From: a virus | Length of the DNA stretch: 29,982 bases | UHGV virus genome: UHGV-0183838 | Direction: 5' to 3' (one strand) | Program-made: the position numbers and the translations under genes | The notes under the pieces: model-generated | Seen by the model: only the letters and a program-made list of their open reading frames with translations | Database searches by the model: none | What the model was told of the DNA's origin: nothing | Shown: positions 13,525 through 20,229 of the stretch, piece after piece | How positions within the stretch are numbered: the first letter of the stretch is position 1 | Layout: the number at the start of each line of letters is the position of its first letter

Positions 13525-14520
13525 GTGACCGTGAGAGCACTACTGACCCCTGAAATTGCCCCGCGTATGGGGATCGTATTGTTCAGACCAGGTTCAGAGC
13601 TGATGCCCCTGTTTATGCAGGGGCGTGTACTGCTGGAGCCTGAGCCGGAACGTTATTCATCTTTCGCCAGTGGTGCCGTTCCCGCGGCATCACAACCGCT
13701 GGCGGATGATCCTGCTGTTCGGGCCGTGTTCCGCAATGAGGCAGTGATCCGTCGTGCTGGTGGCGTGGAATGTCTTGAAAGCTGGTTACTTCGTGAAAAA
13801 GGCTGCCAGTGGCCTCATTCCGACTGGCACAGCGAGAACATGACCACAATGCGACACGCTCCGGGCGCAATCCGTCTGTGCTGGCACTGTGATAACCAGC
13901 TGCGCGATCAGTTCACGGAACGGCTGGAATCAATGGCAACGTATAACTGTGCCCGCTGGGTGTTGTCTGTTGTGCGTCGGGATCTCGGTTTTGATGATAG
14001 TCACGTTGTGACAATGCCGGAACTGTGCTGGTGGCTGATTCGTAATGACCTGGCGGATGCCTTACCGGAAAGTGCAGCCCGTAAGGCACTGAGATTACCA
14101 AAGCCTGTTGTGCCGTCTGTCACCCGGGAAAGTGACCTTGTGCCTTCGGTTCCTGCCACCAGCATCATCCAGGATAAGGCAAAAAAGGTGCTGGCGCTGA
14201 AAGTGGATCCGGAGTCGCCGGAGTCTTTTATGTTACGCCCAAAACGTCGCCGCTGGGTTAATGAAAAGTACACGCGCTGGGTTAAGACACAGCCGTGTGC
14301 ATGTTGTGGAAAGCCTGCTGATGATCCCCACCACCTGATAGGTCACGGTCAGGGTGGAATGGGAACAAAAGCGCATGACCTCTTTGTGTTGCCTTTGTGC
14401 AGAAAGCATCACGACGAGCTGCATGCGGATACCGTGGCATTTGAAGAGAAGTATGGCTCCCAGCTGGAGCTGATATTTCGTTTTATCGATCGTGCGCTGG
14501 CAACAGGCGTACTGGCGTAA
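13525..14520 (+). CDS. DUF968-like phage protein with C-terminal Cys/His (HNH-like) motif
   Basis: 331 aa; C-terminal CACCGK...HHLIGHG...LPLCRKHH; typical nin-region gene. Exact start is uncertain (GTG at 13525 or a downstream codon). Confidence 0.65.
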   Translation: MTVRALLTPEIAPRMGIVLFRPGSELMPLFMQGRVLLEPEPERYSSFASGAVPAASQPLADDPAVRAVFRNEAVIRRAGGVECLESWLLREKGCQWPHSDWHSENMTTMRHAPGAIRLCWHCDNQLRDQFTERLESMATYNCARWVLSVVRRDLGFDDSHVVTMPELCWWLIRNDLADALPESAARKALRLPKPVVPSVTRESDLVPSVPATSIIQDKAKKVLALKVDPESPESFMLRPKRRRWVNEKYTRWVKTQPCACCGKPADDPHHLIGHGQGGMGTKAHDLFVLPLCRKHHDELHADTVAFEEKYGSQLELIFRFIDRALATGVLA

Positions 14521-14533
14521 GTGGAGAACGAGC

Positions 14534-15286
14534 ATGAACCTTGAAGCCTTACCAAAATATTACTCCCCAAAATCTCCAAAATTGAGTGATGACGCACCGG
14601 CGACAGGCTCGGGTGGTTTAACGATTACGGATGTGATGGCTGCGCAGGGGATGGTGCAGTCGAAAGCACCACTGGGTTTTGCCTTATTCTTGGCAAAAGT
14701 TGGTGTTCAGGATCCTCAGTTTGCGATTGAAGGTCTGCTCAATTACGCGATGGCACTGGATAACCCGACATTGAATAAATTGAGTGAAGAAATCCGGTTA
14801 CAGATCATCCCTTACCTTGTGAATTTTGCCTTTGCTGATTATTCCAGGTCTGCGGCAAGTAAGGCTCGCTGTGAGCATTGTGCAGGTACTGGATTTCATA
14901 ATGTATTGCGCGAAGTGGTGAAACACTCCAGAAGCGGGGAATCTGTTATCAAGGAAGAGTGGGTGAAGGAACTATGTCAGCATTGCCATGGTAAGGGAGA
15001 AGTCAGCACAGCGTGCAGAGGGTGTAAGGGTAAAGGTATTGTCCTGGATGAAAAAAGGACCCGGCTTCATGGCGCGCCTGTTTATAAGATTTGTGGGCGT
15101 TGCAATGGAAACCGGTTTAGTCGTTTACCAACGACACTGGCGCGGTGTCATGTCCAGAAGCTGGTACCAGCCCTGACTGATTATCAGTGGTACAAAGGAT
15201 ATGCAGATGTCATTGATAAACTGGTTACAAAGTGCTGGCAGGAAGAAGCATATGCTGAGGTGCAATTAAGAAAAGTGACGAGATAA
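14534..15286 (+). CDS. Late-gene antiterminator Q (QuuQ-like, zinc-finger type)
   Basis: 250 aa from ATG 14534 (GGAGAA RBS); four CxxCxGxG zinc-finger-like repeats; located immediately before a strong promoter plus terminator and the lysis genes. Confidence 0.65.
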   Translation: MNLEALPKYYSPKSPKLSDDAPATGSGGLTITDVMAAQGMVQSKAPLGFALFLAKVGVQDPQFAIEGLLNYAMALDNPTLNKLSEEIRLQIIPYLVNFAFADYSRSAASKARCEHCAGTGFHNVLREVVKHSRSGESVIKEEWVKELCQHCHGKGEVSTACRGCKGKGIVLDEKRTRLHGAPVYKICGRCNGNRFSRLPTTLARCHVQKLVPALTDYQWYKGYADVIDKLVTKCWQEEAYAEVQLRKVTR

Positions 15287-15317
15287 ATGATTTTCGCCGA
15301 AGATGGCGACGTAATGC

Positions 15318-15346
15318 TTGCATTTTTCAAAAAATATGGATAAAAT
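15318..15346 (+). promoter_or_regulatory. Candidate late promoter (pR-prime-like)
   Basis: TTGCAT (15318-15323), 17-nt spacer, TAAAAT (15341-15346), directly downstream of Q. Confidence 0.45.
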
Positions 15347-15393
15347 TTTTTCAACGATGGGCTTTGTATACCCGACGTTAAGAAAAAGTAGAA

Positions 15394-15416
15394 AACCCGC
15401 TGATGAGCGGGTTTTT
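15394..15416 (+). terminator. Rho-independent terminator (tR-prime-like) about 50 nt downstream of the candidate late promoter
   Basis: 8-bp stem AACCCGCT-gatg-AGCGGGTT followed by TTTTT. Confidence 0.55.
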
Positions 15417-15708
15417 GTGCTTTAAATAGGGTAATAGAGATGTTGAATCTCATTTCGGGATTCATGTTTGTTTACTTATTATTTATCGGGTGACTTTGTT
15501 TTCTGCCTGATGTTTAAAATGTTTTCTTCCAGTACAATGTCCCTAGATACAATGAGTCTGCTTATTACATTATTAGCAGAGCTATTACGGTCAAAGTACA
15601 GCATAAGCTTTTAAAGCCAATCAACCAGTCATCAAGACAGACGGGGTTATTCATGAAAACTCTCCATGTTTGATTCGATGGGGCCTGAAATTAAAGCTTT
15701 AATATAGC

Positions 15709-15921
15709 TCATGAAAGGTAAACATTGGCAGCTGAAGGGCCACGCAGACCATTTATCCGGCAAAATTCCACGCGTAATCCGGTGGCAATTTCTTCTGCAT
15801 CGCGGAGATTGAGCGCTGAAACATGAAGCTGGACATCGATACGACCATCGGATGGGGTGATAAGACCCTTGCCGCTTTTGCCGTCAAAGGTTTTGACAAT
15901 TCCTGTCATTTTACGGGACAA
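15709..15921 (-). CDS. Cold-shock-domain protein, CspF/CspH-like
   Basis: 70 aa; [13 protein letters not shown]...[14 protein letters not shown] resembles CspF/CspH; apparent TTG start with AAGGAA upstream. Confidence 0.75.
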
Positions 15922-16221
15922 AAAAATTCCTTAATACTGATAACTGGGCGCACTATACACACCTTCCTGAAGAAAGCTATAGTTTTTTGATGGGGTTGAA
16001 GATGGCTGGATGTCTAAAATAAACATTGCTTCATATGTTCAACTATGCGTTAATGATTGCGTCGGTTTGAAGAACAGACGATATACGAAGTAGTTTACTA
16101 AAGCAGTTCTCATTTCAGGTGTTATTCACTTATTCCTTCTTTGAGTCTCTCCAATTAAGTACGAAGTCGTTTCTGTTATACAAGCCATTTATGCCGAAAG
16201 GCTCAAGTTAAGGAATGTAGA

Positions 16222-16437
16222 ATGTCAAATAAAATGACTGGTTTAGTAAAATGGTTTAACGCTGATAAAGGTTTTGGCTTTATTTCTCCTGTTGATGGTA
16301 GTAAAGATGTGTTTGTGCATTTTTCTGCGATTCAGAATGATAATTTTCGAACCTTATTTGAAGGTCAAAAGGTTACCTTCTCTGTAGAGAGTGGTGCTAA
16401 AGGTCCTGCAGCAGCAAATGTCATAATTACTGATTAA
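16222..16437 (+). CDS. cspB: Cold-shock protein CspB-like
   Basis: 71 aa; [53 protein letters not shown]... carries canonical CspA-family motifs; divergent from the CspF/H-like gene. Confidence 0.85.
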
Positions 16438-16719
16438 AATTCATAGTTTGTCTGTATACGATAACGAAGAAGGCTGATGCCTGAGTGGAGATACAGACAG
16501 AGTGGTGAATATTGGATCTCTTTAATAAATAGTAAGGAGGTCCAATACATGAAACAATGGCCAGCATATTTGGCAATAACTTAATCAGGAAAAGTATGCT
16601 AACCATTGTGGTGAAGTGCAGGTTTGCTGCATGAATAGTTTTACAGCAGAAGCTAACTGCTGGCATAGCAAAACAAAGTGCGTAAGTGGATGACTCCCAC
16701 AAAAAGCACCACAATATTA

Positions 16720-16741
16720 AACCCGCTCAGGCGGGTTTTTT
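16720..16741. terminator. Rho-independent terminator between convergent genes
   Basis: AACCCGC-tcag-GCGGGTT hairpin followed by TTTTTT. Confidence 0.5.
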
Positions 16742-16800
16742 ATTATCTGCTTTAAATATGTTATTAAAATATAAAAAATACTTGTTACGAATAAAATCAA

Positions 16801-16971
16801 TCAAGCTACAGCTTTAAGATTTGTCTGGAATACTTTGTTGCAATGAGGGCAGATCAAAAGGGCACCTTTTTGTACTCTTGAAAAACTGTGTTCTGACTCT
16901 TGGGTGCAGTTTGGGCAGGAACATTTAACGAGATAATTACGGCGTGATTTTGAGTCTTTACGTTCTGACAT
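16801..16971 (-). CDS. Small zinc-ribbon protein (hypothetical)
   Basis: 56 aa from the internal ATG at 16971; two CxxC pairs (CSCPNC ... CPHC). Confidence 0.45.
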   Translation of the reverse strand: MSERKDSKSRRNYLVKCSCPNCTQESEHSFSRVQKGALLICPHCNKVFQTNLKAVA

Positions 16972-17189
16972 AGGCTTTTCCTGTATAAATGGCCGTATAC
17001 AGTACACTAAATATGAAAACATATCTCGTATTATTATTTAATACATGATTTTCTTTTAAAATAATTACCCACATTTTTAATGTGTCTGTTTTTTAGCGCC
17101 GTTGAGAACAATGTTTGCTATAAAAACTAACCCATAGACTCCGATCTTTTCAAACATATTGCACCATCTGTGTACATCGGGGCGAGGAT

Positions 17190-17405
17190 ATGAAATCAAT
17201 GGATAAGTTAACAACAGGTATCGCCTATGGCACATCGGCTGGTAATGCTGGTTTCTGGGCATTGCAGTTACTCGATAAAGTAACTCCGTCACAGTGGGCT
17301 GCAATCGGTGTGCTGGGTAGTCTGGTTTTTGGCCTGCTGACGTATCTGACAAACCTTTATTTCAAGATTAAAGAAGACAGGCGTAAGGTTGCGAGAAGAG
17401 AGTAA
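17190..17405 (+). CDS. Class II holin (phage-21 S-like pinholin)
   Basis: 71 aa; [28 protein letters not shown]...[17 protein letters not shown] resembles S21/EssD-type holins. Confidence 0.85.
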
Positions 17406-17409
17406 TCCA

Positions 17410-17724
17410 ATGACACAAGACTATGAACTGGTTGTGAAAGGAGTCCGCAATTTTGAGAATAAAGTGGCGGTAACTGTAGCCTTACGGGACAAAAAACGCT
17501 TTGACGGTGAAATTTTTGACCTGGACATCTCGCTGGACCGTGTTGAAGGTGCCGCGCTTGAGTTTTATGAGGCAGCAGCGAGAAGGAGCATCAGACAGGT
17601 CTTCCTGGATGTTGCTGCCGGGTTATGTGAAGGGGACGAGCTGTTGCCAGAAACGCGACCCTGTTCAGAGGCTCGGTATACCATAAAAATTAACAGTTCA
17701 GATAACTCGATTACGGGTTGTTAG
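17410..17724 (+). CDS. Hypothetical protein inserted between holin and endolysin
   Basis: 104 aa from ATG 17410; no family recognised; weak RBS. Confidence 0.45.
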   Translation: MTQDYELVVKGVRNFENKVAVTVALRDKKRFDGEIFDLDISLDRVEGAALEFYEAAARRSIRQVFLDVAAGLCEGDELLPETRPCSEARYTIKINSSDNSITGC

Positions 17725-17779
17725 CTTTTTGCAGTTGGCTTTCCAGTATCTTTCATTGGTAGCATCCTGATAAATATCC

Positions 17780-18807
<1,028 letters not shown>

Positions 18808-19169
18808 GGTAATATTAAATCGGAACATTTACATCGCGGAATGTAAAATTTAAATAAAAAGGACTCTTCCATGAGCCAAAATTCCTGAAATCTTAAGGGT
18901 AAGATAAAAGGTCTTAATCAGAATGACACGTTTTATTAATAAATAAAGCTATTCTTTCATTGCTGTGTTTTTCTTTACAAAAGTAATCCTTGCTATGGGT
19001 GGTTAATCATGAGTTAATGGTGTTCTGGTTTGTTACAAATTTATCTGAAGCAGTCATTGTTATAATTTTATTATTTGTACCTCTTGAGATTTCCTTGTTG
19101 GTTTTTCTCTCTGATATTTTTTTTCGGACCATTCTGCCCAAGGGCTAATTTCTTCAAAAGGTAATAATT

Positions 19170-19382
19170 ATGTCTAACAAAATGACTGGTTTAGTGAAAT
19201 GGTTTAACCCTGAAAAAGGTTTTGGTTTCATCACGCCGAAAGATGGCAGCAAAGATGTGTTTGTCCATTTCTCAGCAATTCAGAGCAACGATTTCAAAAC
19301 ATTAACTGAGAATCAGGAAGTTGAATTTGGTATTGAGAACGGACCTAAAGGTCCTGCCGCTGTTCATGTAGTGGCGCTTTGA
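19170..19382 (+). CDS. cspI: Cold-shock protein CspI-like
   Basis: 70 aa; [53 protein letters not shown]...; preceded by a long ~360-bp AT-rich leader as is typical for csp genes. Confidence 0.85.
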
Positions 19383-19587
19383 GGTAGACAATATTACAAA
19401 CCATATTCACTTTAGATGCCCGTGTTGTCATGGTTCCCAGTATAGAACATCATCTTTTGATGTTTCTGACATGAATCCTTTCGGGGCAAAATGTATCTTT
19501 TGTAAATCAATGATGATTACATTTGATAATATTTCACAATACTTAAATGTTAGCCATCTGTCGTTAGATTTAAGAAAGTGAAAATGA

Positions 19588-19609
19588 AGGCTCCTTCGGG
19601 AGCTTTTTT
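19588..19609 (+). terminator. Rho-independent terminator
   Basis: AGGCTCC-ttcg-GGAGCTT hairpin followed by TTTTTT. Confidence 0.5.
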
Positions 19610-19652
19610 GCTTAGTGTCTAGTCGATGGATACTCACATATTACGGTAACAT

Positions 19653-19883
19653 ATGAAAAAAATAATAGTTTTTTTTAACTCTGAACCAGCAATGGTAGTG
19701 CCAGTGATGACCGGAGTTAACACCATCATGCGTGAATACCCAAATGGCGAAACAACACACCTCACTGTAATGGCTGCAGGGTTTCCATCTCTGACCGGAG
19801 ATCATAAAGTCATTTATGTAGCAGCGGATCGACATGTAACTTCAGAAGAAATTCTGGAAGCAGCAATGAGACTCTTGAATTGA
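19653..19883 (+). CDS. Hypothetical small protein
   Basis: 76-aa ORF with protein-like composition; no recognisable RBS. Confidence 0.45.
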   Translation: MKKIIVFFNSEPAMVVPVMTGVNTIMREYPNGETTHLTVMAAGFPSLTGDHKVIYVAADRHVTSEEILEAAMRLLN

Positions 19884-20052
19884 TTTGATTCTAATGCATT
19901 GATAATAAATGATAATCATCTTTATCTGTTTGTGTGAAATTTAGACCGTCGTATGTTGATTATTGCGATGTTTCATCTTATCTTTTATACGTTTGCTCCA
20001 TATAATTGACACTACTGTGTACCAGGAAAGTCATAACAGACTAAAAGAGGAA

Positions 20053-20229
20053 ATGATGAACATTGAAGAGTTAAAAACAAAAACAGAAGCAGATATTTCT
20101 GAATATATAACAAAAAAAATCATTGAGCTTAAGAAAAAGACCGGGAAAGAAGTTACCAGTATCCAGTTTACTGCACGGGAAAAAATGACTGGTCTTGAAA
20201 GCTATGATATCAAGATTGATTTAATCTAG
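20053..20229 (+). CDS. gnsB: GnsA/GnsB-family small protein
   Basis: 58 aa from ATG 20053; MMNIEELKTKTEADISEYITKKIIELKKKTGKEVTSIQFTAREKMTGLESYDIKIDLI resembles GnsB; AAGAGGA upstream. Confidence 0.7.
   Translation: MMNIEELKTKTEADISEYITKKIIELKKKTGKEVTSIQFTAREKMTGLESYDIKIDLI

Follow-up and report, generated by a model that had tools for sequence, protein, structure and literature searches.

The block at 15287-17189 of the window (the whole stretch of DNA that was analysed, 29,982 nucleotides of the UHGV virus genome UHGV-0183838) can be identified with high confidence as the cold-shock cassette ynfS-cspF-cspB-ynfU, carried as cargo by lambdoid prophages of the Qin type and located between the Q/PR'/tR' module and the holin gene. 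The closest record, H1, is 100% identical across the stretch. Among 5426 complete E. coli genomes, at least 80% of it is present in 1411, where cspB, cspF, and ynfU are annotated. The elements described in the first-pass annotation are all found at their given positions (Table 1), with scores far beyond chance. Both the cassette and its arrangement are already known, as this is the textbook layout of K-12 Qin and is already annotated; the observation is thus correct but ordinary, and the locus adds nothing beyond the annotation of, and publications on, Qin, Tritos, and the E. coli CspA family. The sole item that is possibly new is a conserved structured RNA element in the 3'UTR of cspB, to which we return below.

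Table 1. Features of the late switch, the cargo cassette, and the adjoining lysis region (window coordinates).
Feature	Position	Strand	Evidence or details
Q late antiterminator gene (ydfT/quuQ type, 250 aa)	14534..15286	+	Pfam PF03589 (Antiterm) E=2.1e-52
Predicted PR'	15318..15346	+	-35 TTGCAT 15318-15323, 17-nt spacer, -10 TAAAAT 15341-15346; predicted start ~15353
AACGATGGG, -10-like sigma70 pause-inducing element, +1 to +9	15353..15361	+	identical to lambda PR' element
tR' intrinsic terminator	15392..15420	.	fold -27.8 kcal/mol; z -5.4 plus strand, z -5.8 minus strand
Variable cargo cassette, Q-to-S slot	15424..17163	.	homology breakpoints in two alignments; ~1.74 kb, 37% GC
ynfS, 29-aa small protein gene	15565..15654	-	Pfam YnfS PF23697 E=1e-21; annotated in K-12
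cspF, CspF/CspH-type cold-shock-domain (CSD) protein	15709..15921	-	Pfam CSD E=6.9e-22
cspB promoter, predicted	16026..16054	+	-35 TTGCTT 16026-16031, -10 GTTAAT 16049-16054; upstream AAAATAA UP-like run
cspB 5'UTR (161 nt), cold box, cspA-type thermoregulator leader	16061..16221	+	Rfam RF01766
cspB, classical CspA-family RNA chaperone, 71 aa	16222..16437	+	CSD E=8.4e-32; co-oriented with late transcription
Conserved structured RNA element, cspB 3'UTR, 5 helices, 35 pairs	16552..16712	+	covariation in 19 homologues
Intrinsic terminator of cspB transcript	16719..16745	+	-16.8 kcal/mol, z -5.0
ynfU, 56-aa zinc-knuckle protein (CPNC...CPHC), basic N-terminus	16801..16971	-	Pfam PF23499 E=4.7e-31; NCBIfam NF038384
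Holin, essQ-type class II (P21), first lysis-cassette gene	17190..17405	+	Pfam PF04971 E=7.3e-34
cspI with own cspA-type leader	19024..19382 (CDS 19170-19382)	+	RF01766 112.8 bits over 19024-19409

Gene content and borders of the cassette

The first-pass annotation had placed two divergent csp genes and a convergent zinc-ribbon ORF between the late promoter/terminator and the holin, with a third csp paralogue to the right. Our analysis bears this out: the divergent genes are cspF-like and cspB-like, each with a Pfam CSD match, the zinc-ribbon ORF is ynfU, which is convergent with cspB, and the third paralogue is cspI, ~2 kb further right, the product of which is identical to K-12 CspI. The distance from the Q stop to the holin start is 1.9 kb, of which 1.74 kb is variable cargo. 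The count of antisense genes, given as two of three, needed amending. ynfS is a fourth gene that had been overlooked, and three of the four cargo genes are therefore antisense to late transcription.

Both YnfS and YnfU have been detected as proteins in K-12, where YnfU is abundant (10.1101/511675). YnfU scored 106.9 bits (cut-off 27) and 79.8 bits (cut-off 36) against PF23499 and NF038384 (zinc_YnfU_fam), respectively, contains two CPxC knuckles, C19-P-N-C22 and C41-P-H-C44, and is 98-100% identical to the K-12 and 2H10 copies. A relationship of YnfU to YnfQ/YmcF, which would make a repeated "csp plus zinc ribbon" pair, was considered and rejected, as the proteins have no similarity and fall into separate Pfam families. 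CspB has two conservative differences from K-12 CspB, and CspI matches the CSD profile with E=1.6e-31; both retain all of the CspA RNP1/RNP2 positions (W11, F18, F20, F31, H33, and F34). CspF scored 159 bits against the NCBIfam CspF model (cut-off 111) and differs from K-12 CspF by one residue, with T, K, L, Q, H, and V at these six positions. This loss of the RNP aromatics agrees with published work (PMC6719143). The role in RNA metabolism in the cold that the first-pass annotation had suggested for these genes is the established function of CspB and CspI, while for CspF, in which the aromatic RNA-binding residues are missing, it is doubtful.

The borders of the cassette are sharp when compared with phages that carry other cargo. 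To the left, tR' is the last conserved element and homology to other phages ends at ~15423, while to the right homology resumes ~25 nt before the holin ATG. Between these breakpoints the GC content is 37.1%, versus 47-52% in the flanking Q/ydfU and lysis genes. Q and the following 137 nt, which contain PR', the pause site, and tR', are ~94-96% identical in SfV, mEp460, Ayreon, PhiR47_1, and Stx2c-converting phages. Among phages sharing this module, the slot directly after tR' holds a DNA methylase (SfV, mEp460) or four tRNA genes (PhiR47_1); in mEp460 and PhiR47_1 the cargo is flanked by the same Q/PR'/tR' and P21-type holin, and in SfV the methylase is followed by a different holin. The csp cassette itself is carried by 2H10, PhiR63_1, HannyBb, PhiR42_1, and Tritos. 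Morons, in the sense of Hendrix and colleagues, are autonomous additional blocks of genes in phage genomes and are recognized by their presence or absence in relatives, their own promoter and terminator, deviant base composition, and expression in the repressed prophage. The cassette is replaced in close relatives, cspB comes with a promoter, leader, and terminator of its own, the GC content departs from that of the flanks, and homologues are expressed from a repressed prophage (PMC9928086), all of which favours the moron reading given in the first-pass annotation.

The same gene order and orientation, ydfT-ynfS-cspF-cspB-ynfU-essQ-ydfR-rrrQ-rzpQ-cspI, is found in Qin of K-12 MG1655 (b1552-b1559). 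The sequences are nearly the same, with CspI identical, one residue different in each of CspF and YnfU, and two in CspB, and the PR'/tR' region and terminators are the same as those of the window. What is left of Qin is a decayed prophage at the ydfJ locus, while the prophage of the window, as read from H1, lies beside yjjG/rimI and, unlike Qin, looks complete, with integrase, repressor, replication, Q, lysis, terminase, portal, capsid, and tail genes. 2H10 (Glaedevirus) and Tritos (prophage 3 of AIEC LF82), both sequenced temperate phages, the latter with demonstrated plaques and virions, have the same Q, csp cassette, and P21-type lysis cassette, followed by cspI-ynfN-gnsB. In Tritos a deletion of ~260 bp removes ynfS and the cspF stop codon, and a further 1-bp deletion lies inside cspF. 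Both ynfU and ynfS are present in the 2H10 sequence but missing from its annotation. A paralogous divergent pair is found in the K-12 chromosomal locus cspH-cspG-ymcF-ymcE-gnsA, where cspH, the intergenic region, and the cspG leader are 76-77% identical to the cspF/cspB region, and ymcF...gnsA parallels ynfQ...gnsB downstream of cspI. This chromosomal locus is without Q, ynfU, lysis genes, and the cspB-type 3'UTR element. The cspG coding sequence is itself cspB-like at its 5' end and cspI-like at its 3' end.

The late switch and transcription across the cassette

The Q protein, annotated ydfT in H1 and K-12, belongs to the lambda-Q family, with an inserted DnaJ-like CxxCxGxG zinc region (Pfam DnaJ_CXXCXGXG match), and is homologous to the characterized Q-lambda (PDB 7UBM/7UBN, E=4.7e-36). 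Downstream of Q, the putative PR' has the same geometry as lambda PR' (NC_001416), in which the -10 hexamer is followed after 6 nt by AACGATGGG. The -35 hexamer matches the consensus at three of six positions, and PR' was absent from the list returned by a generic promoter scan. The promoter and its start site are predictions from sequence and lambda-like geometry. In an alignment of seven phages and prophages PR' is near-invariant, with -10 position 5 varying between A and G, the pause element is invariant, and PR', pause element, and tR' are all kept. The counterpart of tR' in SfV is annotated as a terminator. On the minus strand, where a terminator scan matched it, the same hairpin has the form of a terminator for the ynfS/cspF transcript as well. 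An alignment of the right border across cargo variants revealed no conserved promoter beside the holin. Late transcription that reads through the cassette appears to be the only arrangement that the conserved sequence allows, and this read-through is likely to be Q-dependent.

Cargo is found in the Q-to-S slot elsewhere, including the stx genes in Stx-converting phages and nmpC in DLP12. As here, the cargo in other lambdoid phages has to be crossed by Q-modified polymerase before the holin is reached. It is, however, mostly co-oriented with late transcription and partly expressed from PR', whereas three of the four genes are antisense in this cassette and the sense gene, cspB, has its own temperature-controlled promoter and leader.

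Upstream of cspB, alignment with the corresponding regions of cspA, cspG, and cspI points to a cspA-type promoter. The leader gave an RF01766 match spanning 16061-16500 with 156.5 bits (gathering threshold 78), and its cold box aligns with those of cspA and cspG; Rho-dependent attenuation in this leader has been published (PMC12360218; PMC7815308). The cspB terminator is, after tR', the second strong one that late transcription has to pass. No match to RF01766, the cspA thermoregulator, was found upstream of cspF in the Rfam scan, and a permissive Rfam scan of 15200-17300 returned, besides the cspA-type leader, only terminator-driven sub-threshold noise. A second AT-rich island of cargo follows Rz and contains cspI.

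Based on these features, the cassette would run on its own signals in the lysogen. cspB would be transcribed from its cspA-type promoter, and the 161-nt leader would act as both a thermosensor and a Rho-dependent attenuator, which would confine most CspB synthesis to cold-shifted and late stationary-phase cells. The cspB transcript would continue through the structured 3'UTR to its own terminator, with cspF/ynfS and ynfU transcribed from the opposite strand by putative promoters. Upon induction, RNA polymerase pausing just past PR', at the lambda-like AACGATGGG site, would be loaded there with Q; so modified, it would ignore tR' as well as the leader Rho site and the terminator of cspB, crossing the 1.74-kb cassette, sense through cspB and antisense through ynfS, cspF, and ynfU, to reach the lysis genes.

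Expression of the csp genes and their possible roles

Cold induces both CspB and CspI, and the loss of four csp genes together makes cells cold-sensitive (PMC4956666). In Tritos, expression of cspB and cspI is 59x and 93x above the prophage background, respectively, and both genes have been named morons (PMC9928086). The first-pass annotation had held that its reading would fall if the genes were silent or their deletion had no phenotype. Published work on K-12 Qin answers this for cspB and cspI, both of which are expressed and the knock-outs of which lose in long-term stationary-phase competition; cspF is also expressed, but its knock-out had no effect (PMC7406224). The present analysis establishes which genes the locus contains, where the cassette begins and ends, which cargoes replace it in related phages, how leaders and terminators are structured, and the promoter geometry; the benefit of cspB and cspI to the host is one shown specifically for the K-12 Qin copies.

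Could the csp genes instead serve the phage, with CspB and CspI made lytically to chaperone or antiterminate the long late mRNA at low temperature? We consider this unlikely. cspB and cspI flank the lysis cassette and run in the direction of the late operon, NCBIfam names and a review describe proteins of the CspA family as RNA chaperones and transcription antiterminators, and plaque-forming phages keep the csp cassette. However, no csp gene is present in close relatives that share Q, PR', and holin with this prophage, and the csp genes are therefore dispensable for the late programme. The strong expression of cspB and cspI in an uninduced lysogen (PMC9928086) and the host phenotypes seen with a cryptic prophage that makes no virions (PMC7406224) also argue against a service to the phage. 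It is still less probable that the cassette is an insulator, in which antisense ynfS/cspF and ynfU together with the Rho site stop unmodified polymerase that leaks past tR' and keep the holin silent in the lysogen. The opposition of three of the four cargo genes to late transcription would suit such a role, as would the two strong terminators and the published Rho attenuator that lie in the path (PMC12360218; PMC7815308), but other cargo in the slot, namely the methylase and tRNA genes, is co-oriented with late transcription, and Tritos is a stable, inducible prophage despite having lost ynfS and carrying an inactivated cspF.

We also rejected as scarcely credible an anti-phage defence function, in which CSD proteins would exclude other phages in the manner of type V retron effectors or TOTE conflict systems. 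The PADLOC CSD_V matches from which this idea arises (cspB 54 bits, cspI 54 bits, and cspF 23 bits), together with weak matches to NCBIfam retron_eff_Se72 and, on CspI, to Pfam S1CSD-TOTE-2, reflect the generic fold that all CSD proteins share; the retron_eff_Se72 scores were 54 and 22 bits, below the cut-off of 82. Moreover, the neighbourhood contains no reverse transcriptase, msr/msd, or other partner or defence gene, and CspB and CspI are 97-100% identical to experimentally characterized K-12 cold-shock proteins.

A conserved structured RNA downstream of cspB

Between the cspB stop codon and its terminator lies the element set apart at the outset. Across 19 homologues, 90.2% of cells are paired and 13 pairs are compensatory, while the controls gave 0 of 500 shuffles and 23-48% when the structure was slid along the alignment. 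A covariance-model search also recovered the element. Compensatory changes have preserved its five helices across at least 10 genera of Enterobacteriaceae and in SSU5-like phage-plasmids. The position of the element is always ~120-165 nt downstream of a gene of the cspB type, never behind cspA, cspG, or cspI; in the K-12 genome it is at 1641064-1641224 on the minus strand. The 160-nt element had no match in Rfam 15, and no description of a cspB 3'UTR RNA was found in the literature. An 11-codon ORF at ~16549-16584 with a strong Shine-Dalgarno sequence was considered as a leader peptide; this is unlikely, as its start codon and frame are not kept outside Escherichia, unlike the RNA helices that overlap it, which are conserved there.

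We tentatively propose, with confidence that falls somewhat short of even, that cspF, cspB, the 160-nt 3'UTR RNA, and ynfU form an old co-travelling unit and that the element represents an undescribed class of regulator in the 3'UTR of cold-shock mRNAs. Possible roles for the element include a stability or thermosensing element, a platform for protein binding, and the source of a 3'UTR-derived small RNA.

The locus illustrates the lambdoid Q-to-S cargo slot cleanly and with clear limits: the cargo behind an identical Q/PR'/tR' module may consist of csp genes, methylases, tRNAs, or toxin genes. The structure in the cspB 3'UTR, if functional, would be a new cis element in a much-studied post-transcriptional stress response, and would provide a handle on why cspB-type genes spread via phages and phage-plasmids.

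Arrangement and borders of the csp cassette

An ORF list and family searches identified four small genes between Q and the holin gene, which confirmed the presence of the csp genes and the zinc-ribbon gene described there by the first-pass annotation; three of the four had been seen, in the right orientations, while ynfS had been overlooked. The stretch has the arrangement of Qin, the cryptic prophage of E. coli K-12 MG1655, in which ydfT, ynfS, cspF, cspB, ynfU, essQ, ydfR, rrrQ, rzpQ, cspI, ynfQ, ynfN, and gnsB follow in the same order and orientation. The CspI protein equals that of K-12, CspF and YnfU each differ by one residue, and CspB carries two differences, both conservative. As read from the closest record, the prophage of the window adjoins yjjG/rimI and seems complete, unlike Qin. 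A megablast search of 5426 complete E. coli genomes revealed a copy 100% identical to 15287-17189 and coverage of at least 80% in 1411 genomes, with cspB, cspF, and ynfU annotated throughout.

Features of the late region (window positions)
Feature	Position	Strand	Remarks
Q antiterminator gene	14534-15286	+	Pfam Antiterm E=2e-52
ynfS	15565-15654	-	ORF list, family searches
cspF	15709-15921	-	ORF list, family searches
cspB	16222-16437	+	ORF list, family searches
Structured RNA element	16552-16712	+	160 nt; cspB 3'UTR; five helices; terminator follows
cspB terminator	16719-16745	+	z -5.0
ynfU	16801-16971	-	ORF list, family searches
Phage-21-type holin gene	17190-17405	+	E=7e-34
YdfR-family (DUF1327) ORF	17410-17724	+	Between holin and endolysin genes
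cspI	19170-19382	+	Downstream of endolysin and Rz genes
ynfQ/YmcF-like zinc-ribbon small-protein gene	19393-19581	+	Pfam PF23641 E=9e-33; directly after cspI

The ynfQ/YmcF-like gene has no ATG, GTG, or TTG start, its first codon being ATT as in the K-12 annotation, and its product, considered as a relative of YnfU, proved unrelated. The YdfR-family ORF also occupies the holin/endolysin junction in Qin, mEp460, and PhiR47_1; the annotation of H1, the closest record, shows it truncated, with ~500 bp of extra sequence after it.

When 14492-17800 was used to query a phage collection, six records contained at least 80% of it (2H10 in two records, PhiR63_1, HannyBb, PhiR42_1, and Tritos), while matches to SfV, mEp460, Ayreon, Stx2c-converting phages, and others were limited to query positions 1-925, comprising Q and 137 nt, to window position ~15416. 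In alignments, homology breaks on the left at ~15423, directly 3' of the terminator hairpin, and on the right at ~17164, ~25 nt upstream of the holin ATG. The slot so delimited holds a DNA methylase in mEp460 and four tRNA genes in PhiR47_1; SfV has a methylase downstream of the same Q and terminator (tR'), but a different holin. The cassette has a GC content of 37.1% versus 47-52% in the flanking phage genes, and whole-genome searches found it complete only in the nearest genomes, others matching the csp coding parts alone. The csp block is cargo in a defined slot. The moron reading of the first-pass annotation is thereby supported, but without novelty relative to earlier knowledge, as cspB and cspI of Tritos have been listed explicitly as morons, at 59x and 93x above prophage background (PMC9928086).

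Late transcription and the roles of the cargo genes

The Q protein is a homologue of lambda Q (PDB 7UBM, E=4.7e-36), matching in its N- and C-terminal parts; an insertion of 40-50 aa, absent from lambda Q, holds DnaJ-type CxxCxGxG zinc-finger repeats. The 137 nt 3' of its stop codon contain TTGCAT, 17 nt, TAAAAT, TTTTTC, and then AACGATGGG, compared with TTGACT, 17 nt, TAAATT, TGACTC, and then AACGATGGG at lambda PR' (NC_001416); the sigma70-dependent pause element is thus equally far from the -10 hexamer in both. This block is almost invariant across seven phages and prophages and is followed by a strong hairpin with a U-run (15392-15420; the predicted short transcript folds at -27.8 kcal/mol, z -5.4) that is annotated as a terminator in SfV. 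As conservation upstream of the holin across cargo variants is confined to the last ~25 nt, the predicted PR' is the only conserved promoter able to serve the lysis genes, and this anatomy, together with established knowledge of lambda Q, suggests that late transcription would have to pass through tR', then the cassette with the cspB terminator.

Rfam scans matched the cspA thermoregulator only at 16061-16500 (156.5 bits) and 19024-19409 (112.8 bits; gathering 78), and found no cspA-type leader at cspF. 5' of 16061 the sequence can be aligned to the promoters of cspA, cspG, and cspI, with a UP-like AAAATAA run, -35 TTGCTT, and -10 GTTAAT, downstream of which lies a cold box. Cold induces CspB and CspI, cold sensitivity requires deletion of four csp genes including cspB (PMC4956666), and cold relieves a Rho-dependent attenuator in the cspB leader (PMC12360218; PMC7815308). 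In K-12, cspB, cspI, and cspF reach their maximum in long-term stationary phase; cspB and cspI knock-outs are outcompeted, whereas knocking out cspF makes no difference (PMC7406224). The replication stress response includes cspI, ynfQ, and ynfN (PMC11228462). YnfU, with two zinc knuckles, ranked first in abundance among a group of newly discovered small proteins; YnfS was detected too (10.1101/511675).

Of the six aromatic or basic residues with which the surface of CspA binds nucleic acid, five are absent from CspF, as noted earlier (PMC6719143), where T11, K18, L20, Q31, and V34 stand instead; the first-pass proposal that all three Csp paralogues act in RNA metabolism is therefore weak as to CspF. 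In Tritos, a ~260-bp deletion equivalent to window 15458-15717 takes away ynfS and the 3' end of cspF, stop codon included, and cspF is also frameshifted by an internal 1-bp deletion, yet this phage makes plaques and virions (PMC9928086), so ynfS and cspF are dispensable for it. The same deletion, and the co-orientation of cargoes in other phages, argue against the antisense genes acting as an insulator. CspB and CspI could in principle serve the phage, but such a role need not be invoked, since csp genes are absent from relatives that share the late switch. A defence function would have only CSD-fold similarity behind it: scores stay below the family cut-offs, and partner genes are lacking.

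We also compared the K-12 cspH-cspG-ymcF-ymcE-gnsA locus (1050963-1052240) with window 15709-16437 and 19024-20229. Its cspH and cspG leader are similar to cspF/cspB, and the region 3' of cspG to cspI-ynfQ...gnsB. Near codon 25 of cspG, cspB-like informative sites give way to cspI-like ones (10:4 versus 10:23, Fisher p=0.012). By its sequence the locus resembles a Qin-type late region that has collapsed, and the site switch would fit cspB x cspI recombination with loss of ynfU and the lysis cassette.

A structured RNA in the cspB 3'UTR

The cspB 3'UTR folds much more strongly than its shuffles (z -7.3). From ~16593 to 16746 it has 77-82% identity to sequences on ~100 E. coli and Klebsiella plasmids, mostly non-mobilizable; two SSU5-like phage-plasmids inspected are ~110 kb, and in all three plasmid loci inspected a csp gene of 71-72 aa stands upstream of the match. 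Across the family, a search of 401 genomes recovered the RNA core in 17, from more than 10 genera. In a 19-sequence alignment, our hand-drawn model of five helices and 35 pairs had 90.2% of cells paired and both-side, compensatory changes at 13 pairs, spread over at least 10 genera and SSU5-like phage-plasmids, with none of 500 shuffles reaching any of five measures and slid 3' partners giving 23-48% paired and at most eight both-side-changed pairs, statistics that lean towards structure because the model was partly drawn from the same, related sequences. An 11-codon ORF (MKQWPAYLAIT, ~16549-16584, + strand) behind a strong AAGGAGG shares sequence with the 5' strand of helix 1; outside Escherichia the helices persist in the aligned genera but the ATG and frame of this ORF do not, which makes a conserved leader peptide improbable.

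A covariance model found one copy each in the window (16552-16712), K-12 Qin, 2H10, and Tritos, and none after cspA, cspG, or cspI; the element is specific to cspB-type genes. Among 301 genomes sampled across the order it gave no new match, the only two hits being training-set genomes of the same family. The unit of cspF, cspB, 3'UTR RNA, and ynfU is kept in two other genera of the family (L026 of G277, 1235-2438; L039 of G365, 1265-2567). In G277 a ynfN-like gene directly follows the unit, with no lysis genes in between. Neither Rfam 15 nor the searched literature describes the element, and the cspB 3'UTR RNA is the sole lead worth pursuing.
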